From positions 85,952-149,951 of the forward strand of contig MHFR01000037.1 in the NCBI GenBank assembly GCA_001804285.1: 64,000 nt of DNA, given 5' to 3'. Below are positions 8,787 to 38,100 of this stretch, one piece after another (position 1 is the first letter of the stretch; each line of letters begins with the position of its first letter). Below the pieces are notes generated by a model. That model saw nothing but the letters and a program-made list of their open reading frames with translations, was not told where the DNA came from and made no database searches. This DNA is from Candidatus Danuiimicrobium aquiferis (GTDB taxonomy: Bacteria > Omnitrophota > Omnitrophia > Omnitrophales > Danuiimicrobiaceae). Made by a program: the position numbers and the translations under genes.

Positions 8787-10169
8787 CTAATTTTCTTTCC
8801 CATCCGATTCGATCCCATATTTTTTAAGTTTATAGTGTAATGCCTGCCGGGTCAAATGAAGTTTCTTGGCCGCTTTGTTCTTATTTCCCTTTTCTTCTTT
8901 TAATGCTTCCTCAATAATATCCCGCTCAAACGACTCCACCGACTGCTTTAAATCATCTTGGATATTTATCGTCTTCCCCTGCGATAAACTTAAGTTGCCC
9001 GCATTAAGCGCATTTCTGACCGCATTGGCATCAATCACATCTCCTTCAAGTAGCGTAATTAACCGCTCCAAAACATTTTCAAGCTCCCGGATATTTCCCG
9101 GCCACGAATGATCCTGAAATACCGCCATTCCTTCCGGTGTCACTTGAAGTTTTTTCTTAACGTTGTTGCGGGCACTAAAAAGACCAAGGAAATAATAGAC
9201 AAAAACCGGAATATCATCTTTGCGGTTCCTGAGCGGCGGCAAAACAATCGGAATCACATTTAACCGATAAAACAAATCTTCTCTGAATTTTTTTGCTTTA
9301 ATTTCTTCATGGAGATTTTTGCTTGTCGCCGCAAGTAGCCTGAAATCCACCGAAATATCCCGGACACCACCAAGACGCTTAAAATTCCGCTCTTGTAATA
9401 CTCTTAACAACTTGACCTGCAAATTAACGGACATATCGCCGATTTCATCAAGAAGAAACGTCCCCTCTTCGGCGAGTTCAAACAAACCTTCCTTCGTCGC
9501 ACCCGCTCCGGTGAAAGCGCCTTTCTCGTAACCAAACAGTTCGCTTTCAAGCAATGTCTCGGGAAGTGCGGCACAATTAATGCTAACGAACGGACCTTTC
9601 GCACGTTTCGAATGATAATGAATCGCGCGCGCCACCATTTCCTTTCCCGTTCCGCTTTCCCCCATGATTAATACGGAACTATCCGTTTTCGCCACTTTTT
9701 CGATCAAGCCAAAAACGCTTTTCATCTCGGGCGTCGCCCCGATAAAATTTTTCAAATTATATTTTTCGTGGAGACTGACATTCTTCCCTGTAAACTCAGG
9801 CATCAGGCGCTTTTGACTGAGCGCTTTTTTGACGGCATTTAGAAGATCATCGATTTTGAATGGTTTGACAAGATAATCACACGCACCGGCACGAATGGCT
9901 TTGACTGCGGATTCAATCGAGGCATAAGCCGTAATCAATAGAATATTGATTTCCGGATTAATCGTTTTTGTTTTTTGAATCAGGCCGATCCCGTCAATCC
10001 CGGGCATGACTAAATCTGTGATAACCAAATCGGGGTTTACTTTTTGAATCGTTGCAATCGCTTCACTCGAATCCGCGAAGCACTGGACATCATAACCTTC
10101 CCCGGTCAGCGCTTCCCGAAGCATCGTTCTGATATTCGCTTCGTCATCAATTACGTATATGTTGGGCAT
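8787..10169 (-). CDS. pilR: sigma-54-dependent two-component response regulator (NtrC family; PilR-like by context)
   Basis: 460 aa. The receiver domain has IYVIDDE...DLVITDLVMPGIDG. The sigma-54 AAA+ domain has GESGTGKE...ESELFGYEKGAFTGA. A C-terminal Fis-type HTH follows. It sits between a PilS-like kinase and the pilin genes. Confidence 0.8.
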   Translation of the reverse strand: MPNIYVIDDEANIRTMLREALTGEGYDVQCFADSSEAIATIQKVNPDLVITDLVMPGIDGIGLIQKTKTINPEINILLITAYASIESAVKAIRAGACDYLVKPFKIDDLLNAVKKALSQKRLMPEFTGKNVSLHEKYNLKNFIGATPEMKSVFGLIEKVAKTDSSVLIMGESGTGKEMVARAIHYHSKRAKGPFVSINCAALPETLLESELFGYEKGAFTGAGATKEGLFELAEEGTFLLDEIGDMSVNLQVKLLRVLQERNFKRLGGVRDISVDFRLLAATSKNLHEEIKAKKFREDLFYRLNVIPIVLPPLRNRKDDIPVFVYYFLGLFSARNNVKKKLQVTPEGMAVFQDHSWPGNIRELENVLERLITLLEGDVIDANAVRNALNAGNLSLSQGKTINIQDDLKQSVESFERDIIEEALKEEKGNKNKAAKKLHLTRQALHYKLKKYGIESDGKEN

Positions 10170-10548: not shown

Positions 10549-11787
10549 TCATCCACCCGGCAATATAATTTCAACTCGCGTTCCCTTCCCTGCTTCACTC
10601 TTGACGCGAATGGTCCCTTCATGTTGTGTTACAATTTTATGAGCCTCGGCAAGCCCCAACCCCGTCCCGTTCTTCTTAGTCGTTTTAAACGGAACAAAAA
10701 TTGAATTTAATGTCTCACGGCTCATCCCCGAACCTGTATCTTCAATGATCATTGACACCTGGTTTCGCGACGGCCGCGCATCAATGACCAAGTCCCCGCC
10801 CTCAGGCATCGCCTGATGCGCATTAATCAAAACATTCATCACGGCCTGTTTTAAAAATTCCGGATCTGCCTTCAACCTGATTTTCTTGCCCTTATATAAT
10901 CGGCTAACTTTGACCTGAGGCTGATAGCCATCTTGATGTTCCAGTAAAAGCAGCACCTGATCCATAAACGATTCGAAATCAATTGAAGATAATTTCAATT
11001 CCGGAATCCGCGAATAATCTAAAAGCCCGCTAAAAATTCGCTTTACCCGGCTCGATTCTTCAACAATCGCCGTCATCAGGTTTTGCTGGTTTTCATTTAA
11101 ACGGTCATTCAGCTGCCGGGCCAAAAGTTCTACCGTCCCGCTGATCGACGCCAGCGGATTGCGGATTTCGTGGGCAATACTTGAAGTCACCTGCCCGAGA
11201 AAAACAAGCCGTCTTTGCATTCTGACCTGTTTTTCAAGCCGGAGGATATGCGCGGAAAAATAATAAGTCAAAATTGATACAATCACAAAAACCGTTATTT
11301 TGACATAACACGCATAAAACACATAAACAGCATCCGGCGTACTGATAAAATCGGGAGAAGGTAAAATATACGCAAAGGGAAGCCAGTGTTTTTGATATGC
11401 CAAAACAGTAAAGGTGAAAACAATTCCACTCAGAGCCGCGGCATAAAAACTGGCGTAAGGAAGTAAAACAAAACTCGAGCTAATAATCGTCAGGATATAA
11501 ATCGTCGAATAGACGCTGTCGATTCCTCCGGTATAATAGATCAAAATACTTTCGATCAGCAAATCAAAAAAGATTTGAATGTACGCCAACAGCGTCAAGC
11601 TTTTACCGGTTAGCCACCAAAGAACATAAATAATACTAAGAATCGATATAATTGAAATGATCGCGTAATAGACGGTAAGATTGATTTTAAAAACAAATTG
11701 AGCGCAAAACAAAAAGAACGTCGCAACAAAAAGCCGCGCAATAATGAGCGTTCTGACTCGCGTCGTTTGTTTGAGTGATGGAGCCAT
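10549..11787 (-). CDS. pilS: membrane sensor histidine kinase (PilS-like)
   Basis: 412 aa. About six N-terminal TM helices lead directly into HisKA (SIAHEIRNPLASISG) and a HATPase_c domain (DTGSGM...GTGLGL). It lies upstream of, and was presumably co-regulated with, the NtrC-type regulator. Confidence 0.7.
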   Translation of the reverse strand: MAPSLKQTTRVRTLIIARLFVATFFLFCAQFVFKINLTVYYAIISIISILSIIYVLWWLTGKSLTLLAYIQIFFDLLIESILIYYTGGIDSVYSTIYILTIISSSFVLLPYASFYAAALSGIVFTFTVLAYQKHWLPFAYILPSPDFISTPDAVYVFYACYVKITVFVIVSILTYYFSAHILRLEKQVRMQRRLVFLGQVTSSIAHEIRNPLASISGTVELLARQLNDRLNENQQNLMTAIVEESSRVKRIFSGLLDYSRIPELKLSSIDFESFMDQVLLLLEHQDGYQPQVKVSRLYKGKKIRLKADPEFLKQAVMNVLINAHQAMPEGGDLVIDARPSRNQVSMIIEDTGSGMSRETLNSIFVPFKTTKKNGTGLGLAEAHKIVTQHEGTIRVKSEAGKGTRVEIILPGG

Positions 11788-12030: not shown

Positions 12031-13254
12031 TCACTTAAGAGCTGATGTTAACGTGAGAATCGGCAAAAACATCGCGATCACAATCGCGCCGATCACAATT
12101 CCCAAAAATGCAATGACGAGAGGTTCAATCATTGCCGTCAACCCCGTCACAGCCGTGTCCACCTGAACATCGTAAAAATCCGCAATTTTGGTCAGCATCT
12201 TATCGAGTTCACCGGTTTCTTCGCCAACTCCCACCATGCGAACTACCATCGGCGGAAAAATCTTCTTTCTTGCCAGAGGGCCCGAGATCGTTTCCCCTTC
12301 TTTAATGGAATTTGCCACTTCGCCGATTAAAATTTCGATCAGCCGGTTTCCGGCTGTTTTGCCGACAATTTCCAAAGATCCTAAAATCGGAACGCCGCTT
12401 TTGAGTAATGTCGACAAGGTCCTCGAAAATTTACTGACTGCCACCTTCAGAAAAAGCGGCCCGAAAATCGGCATTTTAAGTAAGCTTGAATCAAACCACA
12501 GCCGTCCTTTTTTGGTATTGATAAACCGAAGAACCAAGAAAATCAACACAACCAATCCAATTGCGATCAAAATAAAATTCCCTCTTAGGAAATCGCTGAT
12601 TGCGAGCAGAATTTTGGTCGGAGCCGGAAGCGGTGCATTCAGGCTTGTAAAAATTCCCGCAAACTTAGGAACGACAAACGTCATCATTCCCATCGTTATA
12701 ATGCCCGCCATGCTCGCAACCACAGACGGATAAACCAACGCCGATTTAATTTTCTTTTGCAGGGCTGCTGACTTTTCAATATAAGTGGCAAGCCGGTCCA
12801 GGATTTCCTCCAAACTACCGCTCGATTCTCCCGCCTTCACCATGCTGATAAATAATTCACTAAAAACCTTGCGATGTTTTTCAAGCGCTTCTGATAAACT
12901 TTTCCCGCTTTCGACATCATCATGCAGCCGGATGATGACGTCTTGCATCGTCACATTCTCAGCCTGTTCGGCTAATATATTTAAAGACTGAACAAGCGGC
13001 ACACCGGCTTCGACCATGGTCGCAAGCTGCCGTGACAAAATCACCAAATCATCCTGCTTGATTTTCTTACGCTGCTTGCCTTTCCCGGGCGATTTCGAAA
13101 AAAGCTGTATTCTCGGCTTGGCTTCGGTAATGCGAACAATTAAATACCCCTGCTGCCGGAGCGCCGCAACAAGGGTATTCACATCCGTCGACTCTTGGGA
13201 GCCTGAAATACTTTTACCTTCCTGATCTTTGACTAAATATTCAAATGTTGGCAT
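12031..13254 (-). CDS. pilC: type II secretion system F family / type IV pilus platform protein PilC
   Basis: 407 aa with two GspF repeats and three TM segments. It lies immediately downstream of the PilB-type ATPases. Confidence 0.85.
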   Translation of the reverse strand: MPTFEYLVKDQEGKSISGSQESTDVNTLVAALRQQGYLIVRITEAKPRIQLFSKSPGKGKQRKKIKQDDLVILSRQLATMVEAGVPLVQSLNILAEQAENVTMQDVIIRLHDDVESGKSLSEALEKHRKVFSELFISMVKAGESSGSLEEILDRLATYIEKSAALQKKIKSALVYPSVVASMAGIITMGMMTFVVPKFAGIFTSLNAPLPAPTKILLAISDFLRGNFILIAIGLVVLIFLVLRFINTKKGRLWFDSSLLKMPIFGPLFLKVAVSKFSRTLSTLLKSGVPILGSLEIVGKTAGNRLIEILIGEVANSIKEGETISGPLARKKIFPPMVVRMVGVGEETGELDKMLTKIADFYDVQVDTAVTGLTAMIEPLVIAFLGIVIGAIVIAMFLPILTLTSALK

Positions 13255-13409: not shown

Positions 13410-15104
13410 TCAATCCTCAATCGCTGCCACTCTCAGAACCTCTTCAAGCGTCGTTTCACCGTTCTCGAAAGACATCAGCGCATCTTCAAATAACGACCTC
13501 ATTCCCTTTTTTCTTGCGACTTGTTCTATTTCCTGAGTTGAGCGATTCTCAATCACCATCTGCTGGATTTCTTCATCCATCACTAAAATTTCCATCGTGG
13601 CAATACGCCCCCGGTATCCAGTATTTCGGCAATAATTGCATCCTTCTCCACGTTTGGCTTGAATTTTCCGGACCCAATCGTGTTTTCCCCCTACCCGTGC
13701 TAATACATCGGCTGAAATAGAATAAGGCTTTCGGCACCGGGGACAAGACCTTCGCATCAGCCGCTGAGCCGTCACGGCAATCAGTGAAGAAGCAATCAAA
13801 AACGGCTCGACATCCATATCCGCAAGCCGTGTCATCGCACCACAGGCGTTATTCGTGTGAAGCGTACTGAATACCAAATGACCGGTCAACGCCGACTTAA
13901 CGGCAATATCGGCCGTTTCGCCGTCACGGATTTCTCCTACGAGAATCACGTCCGGACTTTGCCTTAATAAGGATCGGAGACCGTTCGCAAAAGTTAAGCC
14001 AATATCCGCATTTGCCTGTGTCTGAGTGATTCCTTGGATCTGATATTCCACAGGGTCTTCAATCGTCATAATATTCCGGTCCTTGGTATTAAACTGATTC
14101 AGGATTGAGTACAACGTCGTCGATTTTCCGCTTCCCGTTGGCCCTGTGACCAAAACCATTCCATAGGGCCGTTTGATCGCTTCCTGAAGTTTTTGAACGC
14201 TCGATGAGGTAAACCCAAGGACCTCGAGCCCCAGCTTAACGTTTGACTTGTCCAATATTCTGAGAACCACTTTCTCTCCGTGATAGGTTGGAAGAATAGA
14301 TACGCGAAAATCAATTTCACTATGCTCAAACCGGACCTTGAAGCGGCCGTCCTGAGGAAGCCGTTTTTCCGTAATATCCAAATCGGAAACAATTTTAATG
14401 CGCGTTAAAATAGCATTATACATTTCCCGCGGTGGGGAATGCGCTTCCCTGAGCGCACCGTCAATGCGATATCGGATCCGCAGCCGCGTTTCATAAGGCT
14501 CAAAATGAATATCCGACGCACGGTTTGAAATAGCATCTTGTAAAATTAAATTGACCATCCGTATGACCGGCGCTTCATCCGCGGAAAATTTTTCTTCGGA
14601 AGACACCCCCATTTGCACGCCAACCACTTCGACGGAATCCGCGTCAAAATCCTCGACCAAATCCTCAAATTTCACATCCATCGCGTAGTAATTCTCAATC
14701 GCGGCCTGAATATCTTTAGACGTTGCGATGACCGGCCGAACATGACATTGGGTGATCTCTTTCACATCATCAATAGCATAAATATCCAGGGGATCGCTCA
14801 TCGCAATGGTGACCGTATTCCCAATTTTCGAAATAGGAATCAATTCGTAGCGCTCTGCAATTTTTTTCGGAATGATCTCCACATATCTGGGATCGATTTT
14901 ATACGCATTCAGATTAAGAATCGGAATCTTAAGCTCTGTGCTTAACAACACGCATAAATCCTTTTCCGGGATAATGCCTTCGTCCACCAGAATGTGAAGT
15001 AATTTTTTCCCGCTGGATTGCTGCATTTCATGCAGACGGTCCAGATCCTCTTTCGAAATCATCTTATTTTTCTTAATAATATTAATCAGGCTATCTGTTT
15101 TCAT
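13410..15104 (-). CDS. pilB: type IV pilus assembly / T2SS ATPase, GspE/PilB family
   Basis: 564 aa. N-terminal GSPII_E_N domain; Walker A GPTGSGKSTT; Asp and His boxes; C-terminal tetracysteine CPRC...CNYC. Confidence 0.85.
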   Translation of the reverse strand: MKTDSLINIIKKNKMISKEDLDRLHEMQQSSGKKLLHILVDEGIIPEKDLCVLLSTELKIPILNLNAYKIDPRYVEIIPKKIAERYELIPISKIGNTVTIAMSDPLDIYAIDDVKEITQCHVRPVIATSKDIQAAIENYYAMDVKFEDLVEDFDADSVEVVGVQMGVSSEEKFSADEAPVIRMVNLILQDAISNRASDIHFEPYETRLRIRYRIDGALREAHSPPREMYNAILTRIKIVSDLDITEKRLPQDGRFKVRFEHSEIDFRVSILPTYHGEKVVLRILDKSNVKLGLEVLGFTSSSVQKLQEAIKRPYGMVLVTGPTGSGKSTTLYSILNQFNTKDRNIMTIEDPVEYQIQGITQTQANADIGLTFANGLRSLLRQSPDVILVGEIRDGETADIAVKSALTGHLVFSTLHTNNACGAMTRLADMDVEPFLIASSLIAVTAQRLMRRSCPRCRKPYSISADVLARVGGKHDWVRKIQAKRGEGCNYCRNTGYRGRIATMEILVMDEEIQQMVIENRSTQEIEQVARKKGMRSLFEDALMSFENGETTLEEVLRVAAIED

Positions 15105-15107
15105 GGT

Positions 15108-16847
15108 TTACCGTTCCAGTATTTCAATTTCTTGATCGCCGGCCGTCACACGCACCACTTCATCAAGCGACGTCTCGCCCGCCAACACTCGTTGGATTCC
15201 GCTCTCACGCAATGTCGTCATTCCTTTTCTACGGGCCGCTTTCTTAATATCCTCGGCGTTAGCACTTTTAAGGATTAATTCTTTGATTTCCGGCGTCAAC
15301 ACAAGGATCTCGGTAATCACCGTGCGGCCCGCGAAACCAAGCGACCGGCATTTTGCGCATCCTTCCGGATGATAAAGGGTCGGATGTTCTTTGATGTTAA
15401 TTTTAAAACGCTTCGCCGTTTCCTCATCCAGCGGCTTCGGAACCTTACACACAGGACACAACCTTCGAATCAGCCGCTGCGCCGTCACCATCAATATGGA
15501 TGACGTGATTAAAAATGGTTCAACCCCCATATTGATAATTCGAATAATGGAGCTCGTCGCATCGTTCGTATGAAGCGTGCTTAAAACGAGGTGCCCGGTC
15601 AGCGCCGCTTTGATCGCAATATCAATCGTCGTTTGGTCACGGATTTCTCCGATCAAAATAATGTCAGGGTCCTGACGTAAAATAGATCTGAGCGCGCCGG
15701 GGAATGTGAGCCCGATTTGTTCGCGGATATTTACTTGATTCGCGCCATCCATTTGATATTCAACCGGATCTTCAACCGTGGTAATATTTTTCTCTATCGA
15801 ATCAATGTGCTTTAAAACCGAATAAAGAGTGGTGGTCTTACCGCTGCCCGTCGGCCCGGTCACCAGAATCATCCCGTTCGGCTTAAACGCGCACGATTTA
15901 AGTTCTCCAAGCTCCTTCGCCGAAAAACCCAGTTTATCCAAATTGTGTGCCTGAGATTTTTTATCCAAAATACGAAGACACACTTTTTCACCAAAACAGG
16001 TCGGCAGAATCGAAACGCGAACATCCACTTCGTGGTTCTGTATCTTGACTTTGAAACGCCCATCCTGAGGAACCCGCCGCTCGGCAATATCCAATTGGCT
16101 CATCACTTTAAATCTTGAGACAAGAGCCGAGCCAATCGCCTTGGGTGGTGATTTAAGTTCTTCAAGAATCCCGTCTACGCGGCACCGGACTCTCAGGGAT
16201 GTTTCCCAAGGTTCGATAAAAAGGTCGCTCGCCTTTCGTTTAATCGCGTCGACAAGCAACGCATTCGCCACTTTAATGACCGGGGTTTCCTGAGCTTGTC
16301 TTAAGAGGTCGAGTGTTTTAACTTCTTCTTCCTGGTTTTTTGTTTCCTGGACAATTCGGATGAGATCCTCAATCGTTTCTTCCTGGTGAGGAAGAATGTC
16401 TACATCACTTGCGGGATAATACTTTTGAATGGCTTTCTGAATTTCACCGGCCAAGGCCACAACCGGTCGGATTCGCATATTAGTAATCGCTTTCAAATCA
16501 TCAATAATGGCAAGATCGTTCGGGATTTCCATGGCAACGGTTAAAGAATTATCATAGACCGAAATTGGCATGACTTTGTGTTTATTCACAAACGTCGGAG
16601 GGATCATCTGGATAACTTCTTCCGCAATTTTAAACAGATTCGGATTAACGGGCGGACACTTAAATTCATCGCTCAAAAACAGCATCGCGGCCTGAGCATC
16701 GATGAGTTTCAAATCAATCGCAATTTCGATTTGACTTTTCTTGGCCTTGTTTTTTTCATCCAGAACCAAAGGAAGATCTTCTTGCCGGATCAACTTCTTG
16801 GTGACCAGCTTTTTCAGTATCCCATCATTCCAATTATTCTCATCCAT
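15108..16847 (-). CDS. second GspE/PilB-family secretion ATPase (paralogue)
   Basis: 579 aa. N-terminal GSPII_E_N domain; Walker A GPTGSGKTTT; C-terminal CPVC...CAKC. Confidence 0.85.
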   Translation of the reverse strand: MDENNWNDGILKKLVTKKLIRQEDLPLVLDEKNKAKKSQIEIAIDLKLIDAQAAMLFLSDEFKCPPVNPNLFKIAEEVIQMIPPTFVNKHKVMPISVYDNSLTVAMEIPNDLAIIDDLKAITNMRIRPVVALAGEIQKAIQKYYPASDVDILPHQEETIEDLIRIVQETKNQEEEVKTLDLLRQAQETPVIKVANALLVDAIKRKASDLFIEPWETSLRVRCRVDGILEELKSPPKAIGSALVSRFKVMSQLDIAERRVPQDGRFKVKIQNHEVDVRVSILPTCFGEKVCLRILDKKSQAHNLDKLGFSAKELGELKSCAFKPNGMILVTGPTGSGKTTTLYSVLKHIDSIEKNITTVEDPVEYQMDGANQVNIREQIGLTFPGALRSILRQDPDIILIGEIRDQTTIDIAIKAALTGHLVLSTLHTNDATSSIIRIINMGVEPFLITSSILMVTAQRLIRRLCPVCKVPKPLDEETAKRFKINIKEHPTLYHPEGCAKCRSLGFAGRTVITEILVLTPEIKELILKSANAEDIKKAARRKGMTTLRESGIQRVLAGETSLDEVVRVTAGDQEIEILER

Positions 16848-16879
16848 CTTCGTCTATTTCAGGTTGTCTTATTGAGTTC

Positions 16880-16990
16880 TGCAAATTCCCCCCTCTCCCT
16901 CAGGGAGAGGGTTGGGGTGAGGGTGGATTGAACTCGTTCATAAGCCCCCTCACCTCTATCCTCTCCCCCTTTTAAGGGGGCGAGGAATAT
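16880..16990. repeat. GC-rich hairpin repeat, family E
   Basis: ccctctccctcagggagaggg ... ccccctcacc ... ctcccccttttaagggggcgagg. A similar cccc/gggg hairpin block lies at 22150-22260. Confidence 0.6.
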
Positions 16991-17031
16991 GGGAAAAAGC
17001 GCACAACTCAGGTTTCTTATTACCCTTTCAG

Positions 17032-17553
17032 TTAATCAGACGCTTTCTCTTTCTTGTGTTCCACCGCGGAACGAAAAGAGATGTTCGACACATTTTTATC
17101 CGGCGAACCTTCCTTTTCCATCTTAATATGGAACTGCTGCGAGATGACTGACGTAATCTCCGCGGGCGTTGCGACAAACACCTGAACTTTACATTGAGTC
17201 GCAGCTTCAAGCTCTTCAACCGCTTTTTCGTTTGTCGGATCTGCAATCACCACCGTCAGAAGGTTTCCTATCCGGTCGAGCGGAACACATAAATATTTCT
17301 TCATCAGTTCAGCGGGGATGATACGAAGGACCGTTTCGTTAATCGAAAAATTGGACACCGGCAAATAGGGCACATTAAATTGCGTTGCCAACGCAACCAC
17401 AATATCTTCTTCCGTCACATAACCCATTTGGATTAAAATTTCTCCGATTAGCTTTCCGGATTCGTGTTTTTGCCGATCTAAAGCTGCCTGAAGCTGATCG
17501 TTTGTGATCGAGCCGTGCTCGATTAAAATCTCCCCGAGTCTCTTCATACACAT
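17032..17553 (-). CDS. stand-alone GspE-N-terminal (MshEN-like) domain protein, putative c-di-GMP receptor
   Basis: 173 aa. RLGEILIEHGSITNDQLQAALDRQ closely fits the published MshEN c-di-GMP-binding motif RLGxx(L/V/I)(L/V/I)xxG(L/V/I)(L/V/I)xxxx(L/V/I)xxx(L/V/I)xxQ. The rest is T2SS_E_N-like and has no ATPase core. Confidence 0.6.
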   Translation of the reverse strand: MCMKRLGEILIEHGSITNDQLQAALDRQKHESGKLIGEILIQMGYVTEEDIVVALATQFNVPYLPVSNFSINETVLRIIPAELMKKYLCVPLDRIGNLLTVVIADPTNEKAVEELEAATQCKVQVFVATPAEITSVISQQFHIKMEKEGSPDKNVSNISFRSAVEHKKEKASD

Positions 17554-17701
17554 TCCTCAAAAGGTTGGAAATGAATGAGTTATTTTCGTTTCGATCAAAG
17601 TATAGCTTGCCGGATTTGGCGTTGCAAGGGACGGGAGGACGATTTCGCCCGCTTTCGACATCTTAAATTGCTTTAGAAAGTGAGGGATTAGTCTACGTAC
17701 A

Positions 17702-17777
17702 CCCGGTACCGTTTCCAAAAGTGCCGGGTTCTGGTTTAACGGCATTAGAACCTGGCACTTTTGGAAACGGTACCGGA
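17702..17777. repeat. 76-bp near-perfect palindromic element, family B
   Basis: cccggtaccgtttccaaaagtgccgggttctggtt-taacggcatt-agaacctggcacttttggaaacggtaccgg. It overlaps the 3' end of thpR and the spurious ORF 17557..17745. Further copies lie at 20724-20800 and as a half-copy at 21604-21640. Confidence 0.85.
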
Positions 17778-18353
17778 ACTCGTTTTAAAAGCAAACGAAT
17801 GAATGGGCTCGTAAATTGCCCCTTGAGGAGTCAGTGTACTTTTCATCAAAGACAGAGAGTCAACTTTCTCGCAGGGAAAATCCTGAAACAACGTCGCCGG
17901 AAAATGAACCGAACCAGATCGCACATTGGCTTTTAGACGCGCAATCGTCATGTGCGGTTTGAAGGGCCGGTCCTCAACAGGGAATTTCATCTTTTTCAAG
18001 ACTTGCTCTATCCGCTTCTTAAGTTGGGTCAACATATCAATATTTCCGCCGACTCCGGCCCAAATCAAGCGCGGTTTGCGTTCATCGGGAAACGCCCCGA
18101 TGCTTTCTAATGTCACTTCAAAAGGATTAAATTCGGAAGCCACAGGATCGAGCGCTTGAATGACCTTGTTTTTTTCTTCTTCCGTTATATTCCCAAAAAA
18201 ATAAAGGGTTAAATGCCAGTTTTCGGCCGGAAGAAATCGGAAATTTTTATATTCCAATTTGATCTTTTGGATGCGCTGATCTGCCGATTGCTTGAATTCG
18301 GCAGAAAATGGAATCGAGAGAAATGCTCTTACGGTTTCTTGATCCATGTCCAA
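17745..18353 (-). CDS. thpR: RNA 2',3'-cyclic phosphodiesterase (2H phosphoesterase, ThpR/LigT)
   Basis: 202 aa with two H-x-T-x motifs (HLTLYF and HMTIARL). The last ~13 codons, KTSSGTVSKSARF* including the stop, are encoded by the family B repeat. Confidence 0.75.
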   Translation of the reverse strand: MDMDQETVRAFLSIPFSAEFKQSADQRIQKIKLEYKNFRFLPAENWHLTLYFFGNITEEEKNKVIQALDPVASEFNPFEVTLESIGAFPDERKPRLIWAGVGGNIDMLTQLKKRIEQVLKKMKFPVEDRPFKPHMTIARLKANVRSGSVHFPATLFQDFPCEKVDSLSLMKSTLTPQGAIYEPIHSFAFKTSSGTVSKSARF

Positions 18354-19555
18354 ATTCCGAAAAGCGCTTTATTCACCGACCATTCCCGGACACGATCGCG
18401 CTCGCCGGGAATCTGTAAACGAACTACTTTTGTCCTCTTCACATCCGAAAAAGCAACATAAACCAAACCGACCGGTTTTTTAGGCGTTCCACCCGTCGGC
18501 CCCGCAATTCCTGTAATTCCGACTCCCAGCGACGATCCACATTCTTCCCTGATACCCTTTGCCATTAATTTCGCAACGATCGATGAAACGGCACCATGTT
18601 TTTCAATAATAAGTGCCGGAATATCTAAAAAATTAATTTTGATTTGATTAGCATAGGCGCAAACACCCCCGAGAAAATATCGCGATGCACCCGATGGATC
18701 CGTCACCCGTTTCGCAAGCCATCCACCGGTACAGCTTTCCGCAACCGCTAAAGTTTTCTTCTTTTTTACAAATAGTTTCATGATCGCTTCCGAAAAATCT
18801 TCGTCTCCAAACGTATAGAGATTTTCTTTGAAAATAGCCTTTAATTCCCGCTTCAACCTTTCACGCAACACCCGATTCTTTGTTTTAATCCGAATAATCA
18901 CTTCTCCCGGAACCGGATAGATTCCGAAGTCAAATACCCGGCTTTTAAAAAACTGTTTGCCCAGCTTTGTCATCACCACCGGCTCGGAAACTCCGACAAT
19001 TTTTGCCTGTAATTTAAAAAAACTTTCTCGCTTTTTAAATTTTTTGAGAATTAAATTCCTGACGGAGGTTTTAAACATACCGTGGAGTTCTCTCGGAACA
19101 CCGGGGAGAACAACAATCAGCTTCCGGTTGTATTCAATGTAAAAACCAAGCGCAATTCCATAATGATTGAGGAGCGGTGTCCCGATATCCGGGAAAAGTG
19201 CTTCGCGTTTGGTTAACGAAGGGACGCGTTGTTTGATCTTTCGATAAAGGCGGACAATATGACGGTATTGTTCGGAATTAAACATTAAATCGCATCGAAA
19301 CCGCTTGGCAATGGCTTGTCGTGTCACATCATCGGGAGTCGGGCCTAATCCGCCGGTCAAAATAATGAGATCCGAACGCCCTAAGGCTTCGTCAATCACC
19401 CGGCCGATTTCCTCAATTTGATCATGACAGCTCGCCTGGCGAATCACGCAGAAGCCCAAATCGGTCAATTGTTTTGCCAGGTATTGAGCATTCGTATTTA
19501 AAGTAAATCCGCTGAGCAGCTCCGAGCCGATCGTAATAATGTCACAATGGGGCAT
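18329..19555 (-). CDS. cinA: CinA family protein (MocF-like plus CinA C-terminal NMN deamidase domain)
   Basis: 408 aa. N-terminal MoCF-biosynthesis-like domain (DIITIGSELLSG...ILTGGLGPT) and C-terminal CinA domain (LAVAESCTGG). Confidence 0.8.
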   Translation of the reverse strand: MPHCDIITIGSELLSGFTLNTNAQYLAKQLTDLGFCVIRQASCHDQIEEIGRVIDEALGRSDLIILTGGLGPTPDDVTRQAIAKRFRCDLMFNSEQYRHIVRLYRKIKQRVPSLTKREALFPDIGTPLLNHYGIALGFYIEYNRKLIVVLPGVPRELHGMFKTSVRNLILKKFKKRESFFKLQAKIVGVSEPVVMTKLGKQFFKSRVFDFGIYPVPGEVIIRIKTKNRVLRERLKRELKAIFKENLYTFGDEDFSEAIMKLFVKKKKTLAVAESCTGGWLAKRVTDPSGASRYFLGGVCAYANQIKINFLDIPALIIEKHGAVSSIVAKLMAKGIREECGSSLGVGITGIAGPTGGTPKKPVGLVYVAFSDVKRTKVVRLQIPGERDRVREWSVNKALFGIWTWIKKP

Positions 19556-20549
19556 AATGAATCAAAAGTTGAAGGATGATATTCGCGTAGACTCCGGCAA
19601 ACACATCATCAAGGACAATTCCATATCCTTTGTGAAATTTTCTCTCTATCAAAGAAATCGGAAAAGGTTTCCATATATCAAACAAACGGAATAAAACAAA
19701 ACCGGCAAGAATCGTTTGCCACCCGAGAGGAATCCATAAAAAAGTCATCATCATTCCGCAGACTTCATCAATCACGACAATTCCCGGGTCTTCATCTTTT
19801 TCTTTACTTGAAACCACGGTGCCCGCCCAAATCGCCGCAAGCGAGACAAGCAAAAAGGCCGCAGCCAAAATGAATTGATGCATTCCGAATAAAATGACGA
19901 GCGGAAGCGCGCTTAAACTCCCCCATGTTCCGGGAGCTATTTTGGCGTATCCGATTTTAAAAACGGTTGCGATCTGATACGCGATTTTTTCTTTAGTCTC
20001 CCGAGATAAGGCGGCAAAAAACAGGATTCCCGAGTAGATGGTAATCACATTCGCGAAAAAAATTCCGGCATAATTAACCACTTGCAGCACAGAAGTTAAA
20101 TGATCAAAATACCGGGCTAAAATTAAGGACAAAAAGGATATATAAATCGATCCGACTTGAATTCCAACCTTATATTTTCCCGCCTTTTCGGCAGGGATCA
20201 CTTCGCCCTTCCGCAGAAGAACCAACCGCGTCACCGTTACAACCACTTCGCGGATCAAAATCGGAATCACCCAAAAAACGGAATAAATTCCCAAGCATGC
20301 AAAACTGAAAAAAACACCTAAAATCAGGAATTTATCCGCGATTGGGTCCGCTATTTTCCCGAAGGCTGAGACAAGATTCTTCGTCCGCGCTAAATGACCG
20401 TCATACCAATCGGTAATAATCGCCAGTGTAAAAATAAATATCGAAAACCACGGATGATTGAGCGTCCTTTCCTGAAAAAGAAGGATCGGCACCGCTATCG
20501 CCATAAAAAACCGGAGCATGGTTAATAAATTCGGCGTAATGATTTTCAT
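19542..20549 (-). CDS. pgsA: fusion of CDP-diacylglycerol--glycerol-3-phosphate 3-phosphatidyltransferase and phosphatidylglycerophosphatase A
   Basis: 335 aa. The N-terminal CDP-alcohol phosphatidyltransferase motif is DWYDGHLARTKNLVSAFGKIADPIAD. The C-terminal PgpA-like half has IAPGTWGS...DPGIVVIDEV...FRLFDIWKP...GIVLDDVFAG. Confidence 0.7.
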   Translation of the reverse strand: MKIITPNLLTMLRFFMAIAVPILLFQERTLNHPWFSIFIFTLAIITDWYDGHLARTKNLVSAFGKIADPIADKFLILGVFFSFACLGIYSVFWVIPILIREVVVTVTRLVLLRKGEVIPAEKAGKYKVGIQVGSIYISFLSLILARYFDHLTSVLQVVNYAGIFFANVITIYSGILFFAALSRETKEKIAYQIATVFKIGYAKIAPGTWGSLSALPLVILFGMHQFILAAAFLLVSLAAIWAGTVVSSKEKDEDPGIVVIDEVCGMMMTFLWIPLGWQTILAGFVLFRLFDIWKPFPISLIERKFHKGYGIVLDDVFAGVYANIILQLLIHYAPL

Positions 20550-20552
20550 AAA

Positions 20553-22085
20553 TTAAACTACCTTTTCAAAGTCTCCTGTTAAATCGTATTCCTGATAGTC
20601 CGTAACCTTGGCCCGGACGAACTCGCCCGGATATAATTTCACTTGTCGCGGAACCTTAACTCGAAATATTCCGTCAATCTCCGGGGCATCCATATATGAG
20701 CGACCGGTATACCACGCACCCGTACCCGGTACCGTTTCCAAAAGTGCCGGGTTCTGGTTCACCTGAGTTAGAACCTGGCACTTTTGGAAACGGTACCGGA
20801 AGTCATCCTCAATAAGGACTTCCATCGTTCTTCCCTTTAGTCGCCGGTTCTTCTCTCTCGATACTTTCTGCTGAAGAACCATCCCCTCACGATACCGCTC
20901 TTTCTTCACTTTTTCCGGCACTTGATTTTTCATCAGCGCTGCGGAAGTTCCCTCTTCGCGGGAATACGTAAATATTCCGAGCCTCTCAAATCTGACCTCA
21001 CTCGCAAACCGGAGTAGTTCTCTAAAATCTTTTTCCGTTTCGCCGGGAAAACCCACAATCAACGACGTCCGGATCGCAATATCAGGAATTCGCTTTCGAA
21101 GTTTTTCGATCAATTTCAAAATGCTCTTTTTCGTCGTTGTTCGTTTCATCCTTCTCAAAACGGTATCGCTGATATGTTGCACCGGAATATCGATATAATG
21201 ACAAACCTTTTCCAGTTTGGCAATGGCTTCGATCAATGAATCGTTTACATAAGAAGGGTACGCATACATCACCCGAATCCAACGCAGACGCGGGATTTGA
21301 TTAAGATCGTGCAGCAAATCTTGCAATAACAACTTGTGATGCGTATCATAACCGAAATACGTCGTATCCTGCCCCGTCAAAATAAGCTCCCGGGCGCCTT
21401 CTTCGACAAGCTGCGCAGCCTCCCTCAGAATATCATCTATGAAACGTGACCGATACTTGCCACGGTATGACGGAATCGTGCAAAACGAACATTGATGACT
21501 GCAACCTTCTGAAATTTTAATGTAGCGGCTAAAAGGACTCGTCAGAGATACTCGCTTCATTGTCGAATTGTAAATATAGCCCGGCGAGCGAGTTATATGC
21601 ATTCCCGGTACCATTTCCAAAAGTGCCGGGTTCTGATTTCGAAAAAAGGGGACAGGCAATCGCTTACGTTGCGTCATATGCCTGTCCCCTTTTTGCCGGG
21701 TCATCGCCTGTTCCAAAACTTCGTTAATCAGATGATAATCCCCTGTCCCGACAAACGCATCAATTTCCCTGAACTCTTTTTTCATAACCTTCGGATAACG
21801 CTGAGGAAGGCATCCGACAACAACAATAAATTTAACTTTTCCTGTTTGCTTGAGCTTAATCAAATCAAGGATTCGATCGATCGATTCCTGTTTTGCATCA
21901 TGTATGAAAGCACACGTGTTAATCAGCGCAATATCACATCTCCCAACCTGCCCGATAACTTCATACTTGCCCGAGTCAAGCGCACCAAGAATAATTTCAC
22001 TATCAACCAGTGTTTTGGGACACCCCAAAGAAATCATTCCGACTTTCATCCGTTTCGGATTTAAAATTGATTTTACCTGTTTCAT
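20553..22085 (-). CDS. rimO: ribosomal protein S12 methylthiotransferase RimO (MiaB-family radical SAM MTTase) carrying two in-frame repeat insertions
   Basis: N-terminal MTTase domain (MKVGMISLGCPK...NTCAF); radical SAM motif CSHQCSFC; C-terminal TRAM domain (DAPEIDGIFRVKV...EYDLTGDF). The likely start is the ATG at 22085 (MKQVKS...). The track's longer ORF to 22226 runs through the family E repeat. The inserts are at 21603-21692 and 20722-20800. Confidence 0.75.
   Translation of the reverse strand: MKQVKSILNPKRMKVGMISLGCPKTLVDSEIILGALDSGKYEVIGQVGRCDIALINTCAFIHDAKQESIDRILDLIKLKQTGKVKFIVVVGCLPQRYPKVMKKEFREIDAFVGTGDYHLINEVLEQAMTRQKGDRHMTQRKRLPVPFFRNQNPALLEMVPGMHITRSPGYIYNSTMKRVSLTSPFSRYIKISEGCSHQCSFCTIPSYRGKYRSRFIDDILREAAQLVEEGARELILTGQDTTYFGYDTHHKLLLQDLLHDLNQIPRLRWIRVMYAYPSYVNDSLIEAIAKLEKVCHYIDIPVQHISDTVLRRMKRTTTKKSILKLIEKLRKRIPDIAIRTSLIVGFPGETEKDFRELLRFASEVRFERLGIFTYSREEGTSAALMKNQVPEKVKKERYREGMVLQQKVSREKNRRLKGRTMEVLIEDDFRYRFQKCQVLTQVNQNPALLETVPGTGAWYTGRSYMDAPEIDGIFRVKVPRQVKLYPGEFVRAKVTDYQEYDLTGDFEKVV
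20724..20800. repeat. family B palindromic element inserted in-frame in the rimO TRAM-domain region
   Basis: cccggtaccgtttccaaaagtgccgggttctggttcacctgagttagaacctggcacttttggaaacggtaccgg. It is translated as RYRFQKCQVLTQVNQNPALLETVPGT. Confidence 0.8.
21604..21697. repeat. half family B element plus family D hairpin element inserted in-frame in the rimO interdomain linker
   Basis: cccggtaccatttccaaaagtgccgggttctgatttcg followed by aaaaaaggggacaggcaatcgcttacgttgcgtcatatgcctgtcccctttttg. It is translated as KGDRHMTQRKRLPVPFFRNQNPALLEMVPG. Confidence 0.8.
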
Positions 22086-22270
22086 GGAGATATTGTACGA
22101 TTCCGCGGGCGAAAAGGAAGTGAATTTGAAAATACTATAGTTTGATGAAAACTTTTCCAGTGAATTTCCTTCCCCCCTTGCGGGGGAAGGTGCGGATGGG
22201 GGGGGATTCTCAAATCTCACCCCCACCTTTTTCCTCCCCCATCGAGGGGGAGGAAAGTATTCTGCGGGAC

Positions 22271-35133: not shown

Positions 35134-38100
35134 TTAAGCTGCGGCTTCTATTAAACGCTGAATCTCCGGCAAAGATTCCAAGTATTGCCAAAATTCAACA
35201 TACGCAATTGACGGATAGCCGTTTTGCTCGCCCAACGAGAAGCCATGCGCCTGAGTCGTGAAATATTGCTTCAGCAAAAGGCCGTATTCATCCGCGCCGA
35301 TCTTAATTCCCTTCATATACGCCGATAGATGATTTAACGCTAAAATTAAAGAAAAAGCAGTGGTCACTTTAGAAAGATGATCAAGCTCCTGGAATCGCTC
35401 CCCATCACCGATTAAAACCAGCAGATATTTAAACTGGCTTGCCTGTTCAGCGGACCCAACCAAAATCGCGGCCCCGTGCTGGCGCCCGTCCATCATGGCA
35501 TTTTCCGCAAATTCCGAATCCGTGAACTTGATCACCCGGTAAAGTTGTGCTCTGGAAATCCCGCTTTCAATCACGGTCTCTGCAAGGCTACTTGCCTTCT
35601 TCCCTGAAATCGTAAGCCATGGTTTTCCGTCATCACGCTGAAATCGAATCAAAATTCTTGCAAAATCCGGAAATAGAGTTTTATCGGAAAATATGGGATC
35701 CTCCGATGAAAGATGCACAAATCCTTCGGGGGTGAATAGTAATGCTTCCGTCATCCTGAGCGCCAGCGAAGGATCCACGCCCGTCGATTCAGAAGAATTC
35801 GTCGCAAGCCCACTCAACCGATTCGCAAATATTTCTGTCACCGGCTCCGGTGTTTCCGCAAACGCTTCAGGAATCAGCGATCGAAGAATTTGATCCTTCC
35901 CGAATCGGCTCACCGCCTCCGGTGCCACAGTCCTTTCTGCCACTTCTTTCGCCACCGCGAGGACGCTTTCGAGAGAAACACCACGAATGTTGTCATTGCG
36001 AGGAGTCCCGCCAAAAGCGGGACGACGCGGCAATCCATACTCGGGGATTGCTTCGCCTTCGGCTCGCAATGACACCTCTTGTTGGCGTGCACGATACCCT
36101 TTTTCGCCCCCAATTTTTTCTTTTTTACTTTCCGCTTTGCGACCCTCCGAGCGGGCTTGCATCAGAAGATCATGTACTTGAGGCTGTGCCGTGATAAGGG
36201 CTGAGTTTACGGTTGGTTTATTGTCAACAATCTTCAGGCGGTTAAAATCCACAGGGAAGAAATCACGGGAATTTTCGTCCGTCACCTTTGCTCCAAGCGC
36301 AAATCCGACATGTGCGCCCCCAACCACATCCCAAAGGTTCGAGCCGCCATCCAAGTAGGCATCATAAACCCCAAAAGCGACCAACAGCGCGCTGATGATC
36401 CCAGATCCAGGACTTGGCTCTGCGTTGATCTTTTTCTTGGTCACCAATTGATAATGCCGCGCAGAAAACTTTTCAATGCCCGGAATAAATATTGCATTTA
36501 CTTCTGAAAGCGTCGTAGCCTTCGAAGCCGGAGGCATAAATTTCTGGCCGTTTAGAAATACACCTCCCGAATGGACTTCCACCATAACCGACTGGGCCCC
36601 ATTCATTTCGAATTCGGGCGCATAAATAACGGTATAAACCGGATTGCCCTTATCTAAAAGCGACAGGGTGAAACAATAATTTTTCCAACCGTTGATATAA
36701 GGCCGTGTTCCGTCAAGCGGATCAAGCACCCAAACAAACCTCGTTTTTTTTGCGCGTTCCAGAACCCCCATATCCCGCTCAAACATTTCTTCGCCAATCA
36801 CCAGAGAATCCGGAAGCAATGCAGACACCTCTTTCCTCACCATCTCTTCAATCACCGGATCCACGCCTATTGCAATATCCGAACCATCAAGTTTCCTCTG
36901 TGCTTCGATTTTACTGGCTTTCACCCGAAGCATAATTTTCCCGGCTTCTAACGCAAGGCGCTTCATCGTATGAAGGACTTCCCATTCCTCAAATGCCTTG
37001 GCAAAATTTTGAACACGCGGCTGGAATGGATCGGAACGTTTCGTCGCGATAGTGTCTATAAAATCTGCCGCAATTAGTAGCGTCAGGACGTCTTTCGCGT
37101 CAACATCCGGGTTGATTTGATCGACAAATTTTTGGAATACATCAAGCGACGGGACACCCTTAGACACACCCTCAACGAAATATAACGCGCCATGAAGCCG
37201 GACAGCTTCTATTAATGTTTCCCGATTCGCAAGCCCTTCGGCCAATAACGGATTACTTCTTAACAGATTTGTCGACGCGGCCTCATGATCCGGGTAAAGC
37301 ATTAACGTCCTGCCTTCTTCAATAATTACTTTCGCAGGAACAGTTATTTTGCCGATATCGTGCAGTAAAATAAATTCTTCAAAAAACCGACGGTTCGCAG
37401 GATTTGATAAAACGGCCCGGAATCTTTCGGGTATTTCACCGTACGACGAAGCATAATTCAGAACATCTACCATGGCCCGGAGATGATCCCGCAGTAGCGG
37501 CCCTTCCTGATGAACTTGGAGCGGATAATTTGGAATATTGAACCGGTCATGAAATTCCAAAGGAAGCCTCTCTCGAATCAGTGCCTCAATCGAATCCGCC
37601 CTCAATTCCGATCTCATAAAATCATACTGCGTATTCTCACCGCCAAATGTAGAAAGCCATTCATGTTCAAGGAGTAAATGCATATCGTTAACCGTATGCC
37701 AGTACGCGCGCGAAGGTTCTGCCACATTCAGATTCCAATCATCTTCAAATCCTTGGGCCGTTTTACGCACAAGCGCCAGCACTTTTGCCCGTTCTATTTC
37801 CCGAATCGCAGGATCGTCCGAATACGGAAGCTCCATAATCCGTCCGATTGCCATGTGCCCGAATTTCGGCCGTGATGTGATTCTATTTTCGCCGATGAGC
37901 CGCTTCGCCTCGCTATTTAATTGTTCCATAAAAGGATGAAAACGGTCTTCGGGGTCGGCAAAAAATCCGACAAACCCACCGTCGGCCGTTACTCCATAAC
38001 CAAGTTGAAATAAACGAAACACTTTTGTGCTTTCCGTATTCTGCTTGACCATGCCGCGAATCGTTTGCTTTTCATCTTCGTTGAGCGGAACAAATGTTTT

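Follow-up and report, generated by a model that had tools for sequence, protein, structure and literature searches.

A 64,000-nucleotide stretch of the Candidatus Danuiimicrobium aquiferis genome (GenBank assembly GCA_001804285.1, contig MHFR01000037.1, positions 85,952 to 149,951; hereafter the window) carries a single minus-strand gene cluster between 7.5 and 17.6 kb. Its products are, in order, a stand-alone MshEN protein of 173 aa (S; 17032..17553), two PilB-type assembly ATPase paralogues of 579 aa (A1; 15108..16847) and 564 aa (A2; 13410..15104), a PilC/GspF platform protein, a PilS-like histidine kinase, a PilR-like response regulator and two prepilins. S was recognized by Pfam and NCBIfam matches, and A1 and A2 by matches to both T2SSE and MshEN, the MshEN_N part of each ATPase being degenerate. 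An earlier reading of the DNA letters (the original prediction) had placed the open reading frames (ORFs) for S, A1 and A2 at these coordinates, where all three are present on the minus strand, and had proposed that S is a detached sensor of c-di-GMP (cyclic dimeric GMP) that could regulate both ATPases.

The original prediction described S as consisting only of GspE N-terminal-type domains and as starting with a near-perfect MshEN motif, and both descriptions hold. The sole Pfam match of S is MshEN (PF05157, residues 59-140, E = 2.9e-18), while the NCBIfam model NF053729 ('c-di-GMP_motif') aligns with residues 5-58 over all 53 model positions and scores 71.6 bits (E = 3.3e-20) against a cut-off of 38 bits. 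The binding motif has the consensus RLGxx[LVI][LVI]xxG[LVI][LVI]xxxxLxxxLxxQ, 24 residues long, and occurs as two tandem copies joined by a short spacer (Wang 2016, PMC5013675). Motif I of S (R5-Q28, RLGEILIEHGSITNDQLQAALDRQ) agrees with 10 of the 11 fixed consensus positions, Ser15 at position 11 being the sole deviation. Motif II (L35-Q58, LIGEILIQMGYVTEEDIVVALATQ) follows after a 6-residue spacer and keeps G3, G10, L21 and Q24, with Leu, Ile and Ile at positions 1, 2 and 17, respectively. The exchanges between Leu and Ile in motif II are conservative, while its position 1 is Leu instead of Arg. HMMER aligned S residue by residue with the GSPII-B domain of Thermus PilF, so that PilF K167/L168/G169 correspond to R5/L6/G7 of S, Q190 to Q28, L196/L197/G198 to L35/I36/G37 and Q218 to Q58. 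GSPII-B has Lys at position 1 of motif I and Leu at position 1 of motif II, and its Kd for c-di-GMP is 6 nM (PMC11731258). Because such a tight binder has the same Leu, this residue should be no defect in S.

An AlphaFold2 model of S has a mean predicted local distance difference test score (pLDDT) of 87, with values above 90 for most of residues 1-145. It predicts four helices at residues 6-58, corresponding to the MshEN_N bundle, an alpha/beta MshEN_C (N1) subdomain that extends to residue 141, and a disordered tail from approximately residue 145 to 173. When this model was searched with Foldseek, the best PDB match was MshE in complex with c-di-GMP (5HTL; template modelling score 0.81, root-mean-square deviation 2.5 Å, 137 columns), followed by the N-domains of PilB and XpsE and the GSPII domains of PilF. 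The two motifs, the NF053729 score and the fold, the last of these as a prediction, all identify S as an MshEN domain protein. Translation of S probably starts at Met3 (17547), 6 nt upstream of which there is an AGGA sequence; the NCBI model of S has 171 aa, and Omnitrophica bacterium RIFCSPLOWO2_12_FULL_44_17 has a database entry for an identical protein with its start two residues further on.

On sequence criteria, A1 and A2 are both PilB-like and have intact catalytic motifs. Pfam T2SSE scores are 456.8 bits for A1 and 474.7 bits for A2, each with an additional MshEN match. The PilB model TIGR02538 is the best model for both proteins, with full-length alignments (622.2 and 659.0 bits, respectively) that narrowly miss the equivalog cut-off of 675.65 bits, while scores for the GspE model TIGR02533 (587.8 and 609.3 bits) are below its cut-off of 630.25 bits as well as below the PilB score of the same protein. 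The best PDB match of A1 is Geobacter PilB (5TSG, 500 bits, versus ∼397 bits for EpsE/GspE), and A2 scores 556.6 bits with Geobacter PilB 5ZFR versus ∼405 bits for GspE; the closest solved relatives of the pair are the Geobacter and Myxococcus PilB proteins. The suggestion that one paralogue might be a GspE and the other a PilB was therefore rejected, since PilB scores exceed GspE scores in both, and no Gsp-specific genes are found in the locus. The claim that neither is a PilT fared better: TIGR01420 scores of 194.8 (A1) and 200.7 bits (A2) are well below the cut-off of 319.1 bits, and a disguised PilT was discounted for proteins of ∼570 aa with an MshEN domain and four cysteines, PilT/PilU retraction ATPases having ∼350 aa and neither of these features. 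Scores for the TfpB model NF053534 (478 and 472 bits) are far under its cut-off of 850 bits. The Walker A motifs (GPTGSGKTTT in A1 and GPTGSGKSTT in A2), the N-domain and the C-terminal tetracysteine (CPVC...CAKC and CPRC...CNYC, respectively) were all found in both proteins, as predicted. The Walker A, Asp box, Walker B and His box motifs and the four cysteines are intact in A1, A2 and all 65 orthologues compared, and an inactive ATPase was rejected on this basis. Together, the model scores, PDB matches and intact motifs indicate that A1 and A2 are neither GspE nor PilT proteins and that both are live enzymes. A1 and A2 are 44% identical and are encoded with PilC and two prepilins directly downstream.

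Both ATPases still possess the first ∼55 residues of an MshEN_N-like region, in which the binding residues are altered, and NF053729 gives no match in A1 and 27.3 bits in A2, below the cut-off. To compare these N-domains with S-like proteins across related loci, four aligned positions were scored: Gly3 and Gln24 of motif I and of motif II, residues that contact the ligand through their backbone or side chains (Wang 2016, PMC5013675). All four were kept in every stand-alone protein (52 of 52) and in two PilB proteins (2 of 2) from loci that have a single PilB and no stand-alone neighbour (L038 and L039), whose intact c-di-GMP motif is closely like that of the stand-alones. Among ATPase N-domains from loci with two ATPases, 64 of 65 retain none or one of the four residues and the remaining domain retains two. 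Position 3 of motif I is Leu in the A1 proteins of 18 out of 18 type A loci (the class to which the window belongs, described below), which is the equivalent of the MshE G11L change. That substitution made c-di-GMP binding by MshE undetectable, while G40I carried a 72-fold cost (Wang 2016 supplement, PMC5013675). A neighbour-joining (NJ) tree of the domains groups the stand-alones with the single-PilB N-domains, separate from the N-domains of A1 and A2.

Relatives of S form at least 120 protein clusters of 140-190 aa, and all those with a source name come from Omnitrophota. A total of 38 loci were compared, 36 from GTDB species genomes and two on further contigs, and these fall into three classes. 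All 36 GTDB loci belong to Omnitrophota, although some bear the label 'uncultured Planctomycetales', and 34 of these 36 species genomes contain S. In type A loci, which include the window, the gene order is CinA-LigT-S-A1-A2-PilC-PilS-PilR-pilin. Type B loci (L019-L036, for example L023 7974-13539) represent a deep branch of Omnitrophota and have two stand-alone proteins as well as two ATPases, in the order Sa-A1-A2-Sb-PilC...pilin, with no PilS or PilR nearby. The third class (L038 and L039; 3454-11001) is a separate pilus cluster, PilM-PilO-(unknown)-secretin-PilB-PilC, with the single PilB described above. The order S-A1-A2-PilC is kept down to ∼40% S identity, usually with gaps of 1-64 nt, and PilC comes after A2 in type A loci and after Sb in type B loci wherever the related sequence reaches far enough. 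In a tree of ATPase cores, one clade unites the A1 proteins of both locus types and a second unites their A2 proteins, which places the duplication before the split between the two locus types; A1 and A2 are, by this phylogeny, the products of an old duplication of which both copies have since been retained. The signals on whether Sa or Sb is the orthologue of the type A S protein are less consistent: the NJ tree joins S to Sb, whereas mean identity is slightly in favour of Sa. Judged from these comparisons, the split between S and the ATPases is a phylum-wide and anciently fixed architecture, at times with two stand-alone putative sensors, and is not a quirk of one genome. As a separate observation, a short peptide, (V/I)SFRSAV, is kept in the tail of S (window 17032-17120, residues ∼145-173) in a subclade of type A relatives and may be a docking motif. 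A wider profile search of 1.84 billion representative proteins returned 41,482 MshEN matches, many of them short or repeat-only proteins.

This distribution bears on the notion that S is merely what is left of a degraded third PilB gene, or an artefact of annotation or assembly. N-termini of PilB proteins are indeed the closest characterized relatives of S, and the 184-nt repeat-bearing gap after S is unusual, but the many clusters of similar length, the presence of S in nearly all of the species genomes, its invariant functional residues and its confident, compact predicted fold make this scarcely credible. Phylum-wide conservation led us to reject S as a fragment or pseudogene.

A natural fusion provides a further connection between S and A1. 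In the 765-aa protein P0133, a complete A1-like PilB with a degenerate MshEN of its own is preceded by an S-like MshEN domain that shares 39% identity with S. P0133 is encoded on a contig (L043 8001-13263, JGI 3300009514, GC 62.5%) where an A2-like ATPase and then PilC come next, and the respective parts resemble Sa, A1 and A2 most closely. No more than three fused clusters of this kind were found (P0133, P0268 and P0269; those with a source name are from Omnitrophota) versus over 100 unfused orthologues of ∼574 aa, so the fusion is rare and secondary. The window itself has two genes for S and A1, which differ in reading frame and are 184 nt apart, and a single polypeptide of the PilF type is seen only in the fused relatives. 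On the strength of gene fusion, S is functionally tied to A1. In a mirror-tree comparison, S distances tracked those of the A1 N-domain best (partial r 0.70 versus 0.35 for the A2 N-domain), a weak signal that is confounded by phylogeny.

In most bacteria, the c-di-GMP-binding MshEN domain forms the N-terminal part of the motor protein. The two motors of this locus retain an MshEN-like N-domain minus its nucleotide contacts, and the intact MshEN is encoded as a separate protein of 171-173 aa in the same gene cluster. We consider it somewhat probable that S is the c-di-GMP receptor module, acting in trans, of a type IV pilus machine with two PilB-type ATPases, and the comparative evidence favours the proposal of a detached c-di-GMP sensor for two ATPases that the original prediction had put forward. 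In such a mechanism, c-di-GMP would bind between the two 24-residue motifs of S, and liganded S would dock on a motor, A1 being the likeliest and A2 a further candidate, while the PilC/PilM platform is an alternative docking site; S would thereby be placed in a manner comparable to the additional GSPII domains of PilF. A1 is singled out because the S gene abuts the A1 gene and the two are fused in a rare lineage. Docking would then license or tune the assembly of pili, a role filled in cis by the MshEN domains of MshE and PilF. Domain content, motif conservation, the complementarity of S and the ATPase N-domains, synteny, the fusion and the intact catalytic sites are observed, while the binding of ligand, the identity of the partner and whether the effect is positive or negative are inferred; sequence does not decide between activation, inhibition or selection between motors by S.

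Several observations weigh against this proposal. Pattern searches of the window ORFs (64 kb) detected no GGDEF, EAL or HD-GYP motif, and those of the ORFs in related loci (∼0.5 Mb) no GGDEF motif, so c-di-GMP synthesis in this genome is an assumption; in favour of the proposal, c-di-GMP signalling is reported for Omnitrophota in the form of GGDEF domains and of PilZ genes near giant genes (preprint 10.1101/2023.11.21.568195). Stand-alone MshEN proteins are also not all pilus-linked, as a related 172-aa protein (L042 6001-6519) adjoins an enolase gene instead of pilus genes. NF053729 does not separate the groups cleanly: 52 of 52 stand-alones score at about the cut-off or more, but so do 17 of 64 ATPase N-termini (∼38 bits or above, maximum 57 bits), mainly A1 proteins of type B loci. 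The cut-off was therefore rejected as a discriminator between stand-alones and ATPase N-domains, and discrimination was based on the ligand-contact residues instead. The high-scoring ATPase N-termini keep the helical and hydrophobic pattern and are without the Gly and Gln contacts only, meaning that the inferred loss of binding in these 17 proteins rests solely on the missing Gly and Gln. Moreover, Q-to-E mutants of PilF GSPII-B still crystallized with c-di-GMP, so a Gln-to-Glu change in the ATPases would not be disabling alone, and loss of glycine is the stronger argument. Lastly, position 1 of motif I is Gln or Leu in the type B stand-alones Sa and Sb, not Arg or Lys. A protein with FHA, GAF and HD domains is encoded ∼5 kb from the stand-alone MshEN gene of L042.

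The deviations in type B proteins could also be taken to mean that S is a ligand-independent structural subunit or adaptor in which the motif is kept to build the four-helix bundle. Sa and Sb do without Arg/Lys at the first position of motif I, the turn Gly at position 10 of motif I is often missing in Sb, and much of the motif is made up of hydrophobic core positions (Wang 2016, PMC5013675). The ATPase N-domains argue otherwise, as they keep the hydrophobic pattern (several score 40-57 bits) yet have lost precisely the ligand-contacting Gly and Gln. No stand-alone protein has lost these residues and the ATPases have, a selectivity that points to ligand contacts, and we regard a purely structural role as quite unlikely.

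The complete MshEN_C subdomain of S (Pfam match at residues 59-140) permits another reading in which c-di-GMP is bound but S is a decoy or brake. Here, the MshEN_C (N1) part of S would compete with the N1 subdomains of A1 and A2 for a PilM/GspL-like platform partner, so that S would gate or swap motor access instead of activating a motor. The equivalent subdomain of type II secretion system (T2SS) ATPases binds GspL/EpsL (structures cited in PMC8389850), and type A loci have a single S for two motors. In contrast, an accessory domain of a cis-like kind would explain the fusion of S to A1 better than a competitor would, and neither the locus nor the remainder of the window, to which this negative is confined, has an apparent PilM gene. 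We therefore view a decoy as possible but unlikely. A role in trans on the motors would also be misplaced if S were a c-di-GMP receptor for some other target (PilS/PilR signalling, for example, or a process without any relation to pili) and were no more than a neighbour of the ATPase genes. The enolase neighbour of the L042 protein is in keeping with this, as is the capacity of MshEN domains to combine with many output domains (Wang 2016, PMC5013675). However, type B loci, which have no PilS or PilR, keep their stand-alones beside the ATPases and PilC, the S-A1 fusion exists, and the mirror-tree correlation with the A1 N-domain, although weak evidence, is in the same direction; we deem an unconnected target improbable.

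An extension of the in trans sensor proposal would assign different tasks to the two ATPases. A1 and A2 might be opposed or alternating motors on one PilC platform (extension versus retraction, or priming versus processive assembly), possibly assembled as a hetero-hexamer, with the stand-alone MshEN proteins as c-di-GMP-dependent motor selectors and, in type B loci, Sa paired with A1 and Sb with A2. This scheme is speculative and rather unlikely to be correct as drawn. No PilT-like ATPase was identified by pattern searches of the window or of the related loci, the sequences to which this negative applies.

Features of this arrangement can be recognized in several characterized systems. Vibrio cholerae MshE (5HTL, PMC5013675) has, like S, a two-motif site of 53 residues, MshEN_N plus MshEN_C subdomains and an association with a pilus ATPase, but its domain acts in cis at the ATPase N-terminus and has a spacer of 5 residues, whereas S is a separate polypeptide with a spacer of 6 and the ATPase copies are degenerate. 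Thermus thermophilus PilF (PMC11731258) combines three GSPII/MshEN domains, both binding and non-binding, on one motor. In PilF, all of these domains belong to one chain and one ATPase, unlike the detached binding domain and two ATPase paralogues seen here; with its double MshEN, the fused protein P0133 resembles PilF in layout. In the PilB-PilZ-FimX system of Xanthomonas and Pseudomonas (PMC8389850), the MshEN-like N-domain of PilB is non-binding and the signal comes from a separate protein that docks there. The likeness is in logic only, since the sensor in that system is the EAL domain of FimX acting via a non-binding PilZ protein, while the putative sensor here is an MshEN domain. No motif of a FimX-like (GGDEF-EAL) protein occurs in the window ORFs and no PilZ turned up, though PilZ was not searched for systematically. 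Acinetobacter baylyi PilB and TfpB (PMC11656802) provide an example of two PilB-family extension ATPases in one pilus system, which the A1/A2 pair resembles. TfpB is a distinct family from A1 and A2, and no detached MshEN partner was described there. In Geobacter and Myxococcus, the gene order is pilB-pilT-pilC-pilS-pilR-pilA. The succession of PilC, PilS, PilR and pilin genes is the same in the window, but the slot of pilT is occupied by a second full-length PilB.

The open-access literature that was searched contained no description of a stand-alone MshEN paired with PilB, of a detached MshEN acting in trans on PilB, or of a tandem PilB pair in Omnitrophota, although this silence is no proof of novelty. 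It is already known that c-di-GMP controls PilB, sometimes via separate proteins, and that two extension ATPases occasionally occur together. Control of PilB-family motors by MshEN/N1 domains is still poorly understood (review PMC11656802). If S is a separate sensor protein, it could be titrated, mutated and localized independently of two signal-blind motors, and it gives a concrete candidate for a c-di-GMP output in Omnitrophota. Members of this phylum are uncultivated, very small and possibly predatory or parasitic, and their pili are candidate host-attachment devices. More generally, the locus suggests that proteins entered in databases as 'stand-alone MshEN' can be true components of machines for secretion or pilus assembly.

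The remaining genes of the cluster encode further pilus functions. The platform protein (407 aa; 12031..13254, minus strand; T2SSF 214.6 bits) scores higher with the Thermus-type PilC model (436 bits) than with GspF (395 bits). It is followed on the same strand by the genes for the PilS-like histidine kinase (10549..11787; HisKA, HATPase_c and a weak 6TM_PilS match) and the PilR-like sigma-54-dependent response regulator (8787..10169; Response_reg, Sigma54_activat and HTH_8), which are syntenic in type A loci. The first pilin gene (8165..8818, minus strand) is listed as an ORF of 217 aa with a prepilin N-methylation domain at residues 65-87. Its probable start is Met62 (8635), which yields a protein of 156 aa, the same length as its homologue in the related locus L001, and the 5' extension traverses a repeat element copy at 8722-8759. 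In the second pilin (143 aa; 7514..7945, minus strand), residues 7-30 match the TIGR02532 prepilin domain and there is a weak similarity to PilA/GspG; its L001 homologue is 63% identical. Upstream of S, an 81-nt palindrome with perfect arms (17701..17781, strand unassigned) overlaps the 3' end of a LigT-like gene, and a weak sigma-70-like site is located between this palindrome and S (17627-17599). Between positions 7000 and 18500, a search for a c-di-GMP riboswitch or other known RNA returned only sub-threshold Rfam hairpin look-alikes, also for the palindrome.

The spacer between S and A1 (16848..17031, minus strand) is 184 nt long in the window, compared with 1-64 nt or a 4-nt overlap in relatives. 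RNA folding gives three hairpins rich in GC (-78.8 kcal/mol, z -5.5); no terminator or terminator-like T run was found in it, and it has no Rfam match at threshold. This spacer is probably one of several repeat elements that are inserted in this genome, and it does not belong to the conserved design. A palindromic repeat of 74-81 nt, of which the palindrome upstream of S is one copy, also occurs twice within a RimO/MiaB-like gene (20553-22226, minus strand). The product of that gene has 557 aa versus 462 aa in a relative, and contains two in-frame insertions of ∼24-28 aa that coincide with repeat copies at 20724-20804 and 21604-21646 and are translated as 'NQNPALLE(T/M)VPG'. These insertions are reminiscent of the Rickettsia palindromic elements, which insert into coding genes. 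A second family, resembling repetitive extragenic palindromic (REP) elements (TGTCATTCCCGCGAAAGCGGGAATCCA), has copies of ∼30-45 nt in both orientations at window positions 2216, 8722, 10244, 10398, 11859, 11941, 34941, 50832 and 63039. Among the sites of these copies are the intervals separating pil genes, the spurious 5' extension of the first pilin ORF and the interior of a giant ORF.

Two giant ORFs are present further along the minus strand, encoding 5523 aa (35134-51705) and 3695 aa (51881-62968). The larger contains palindromic repeats at 40934-41013 and 49244-49323, while the smaller has no Pfam match; giant genes are a reported trait of Omnitrophota (preprint 10.1101/2023.11.21.568195). 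Downstream of the pilins, window positions 1121-7443 (minus strand) encode a membrane protein with PMT_2 and TPR domains, which is syntenic in the related loci L001 and L003. Another PMT_2 protein, a radical SAM enzyme that binds B12 and a methyltransferase are encoded there as well, and together these genes may be a pilin glycosylation or modification block. Finally, a 335-aa ORF at 19542-20549 (minus strand) is an apparent fusion of a PgsA-like CDP-alcohol phosphatidyltransferase with PgpA, judging by gene order and size, and the corresponding proteins are encoded by two overlapping genes in L001 and L003.

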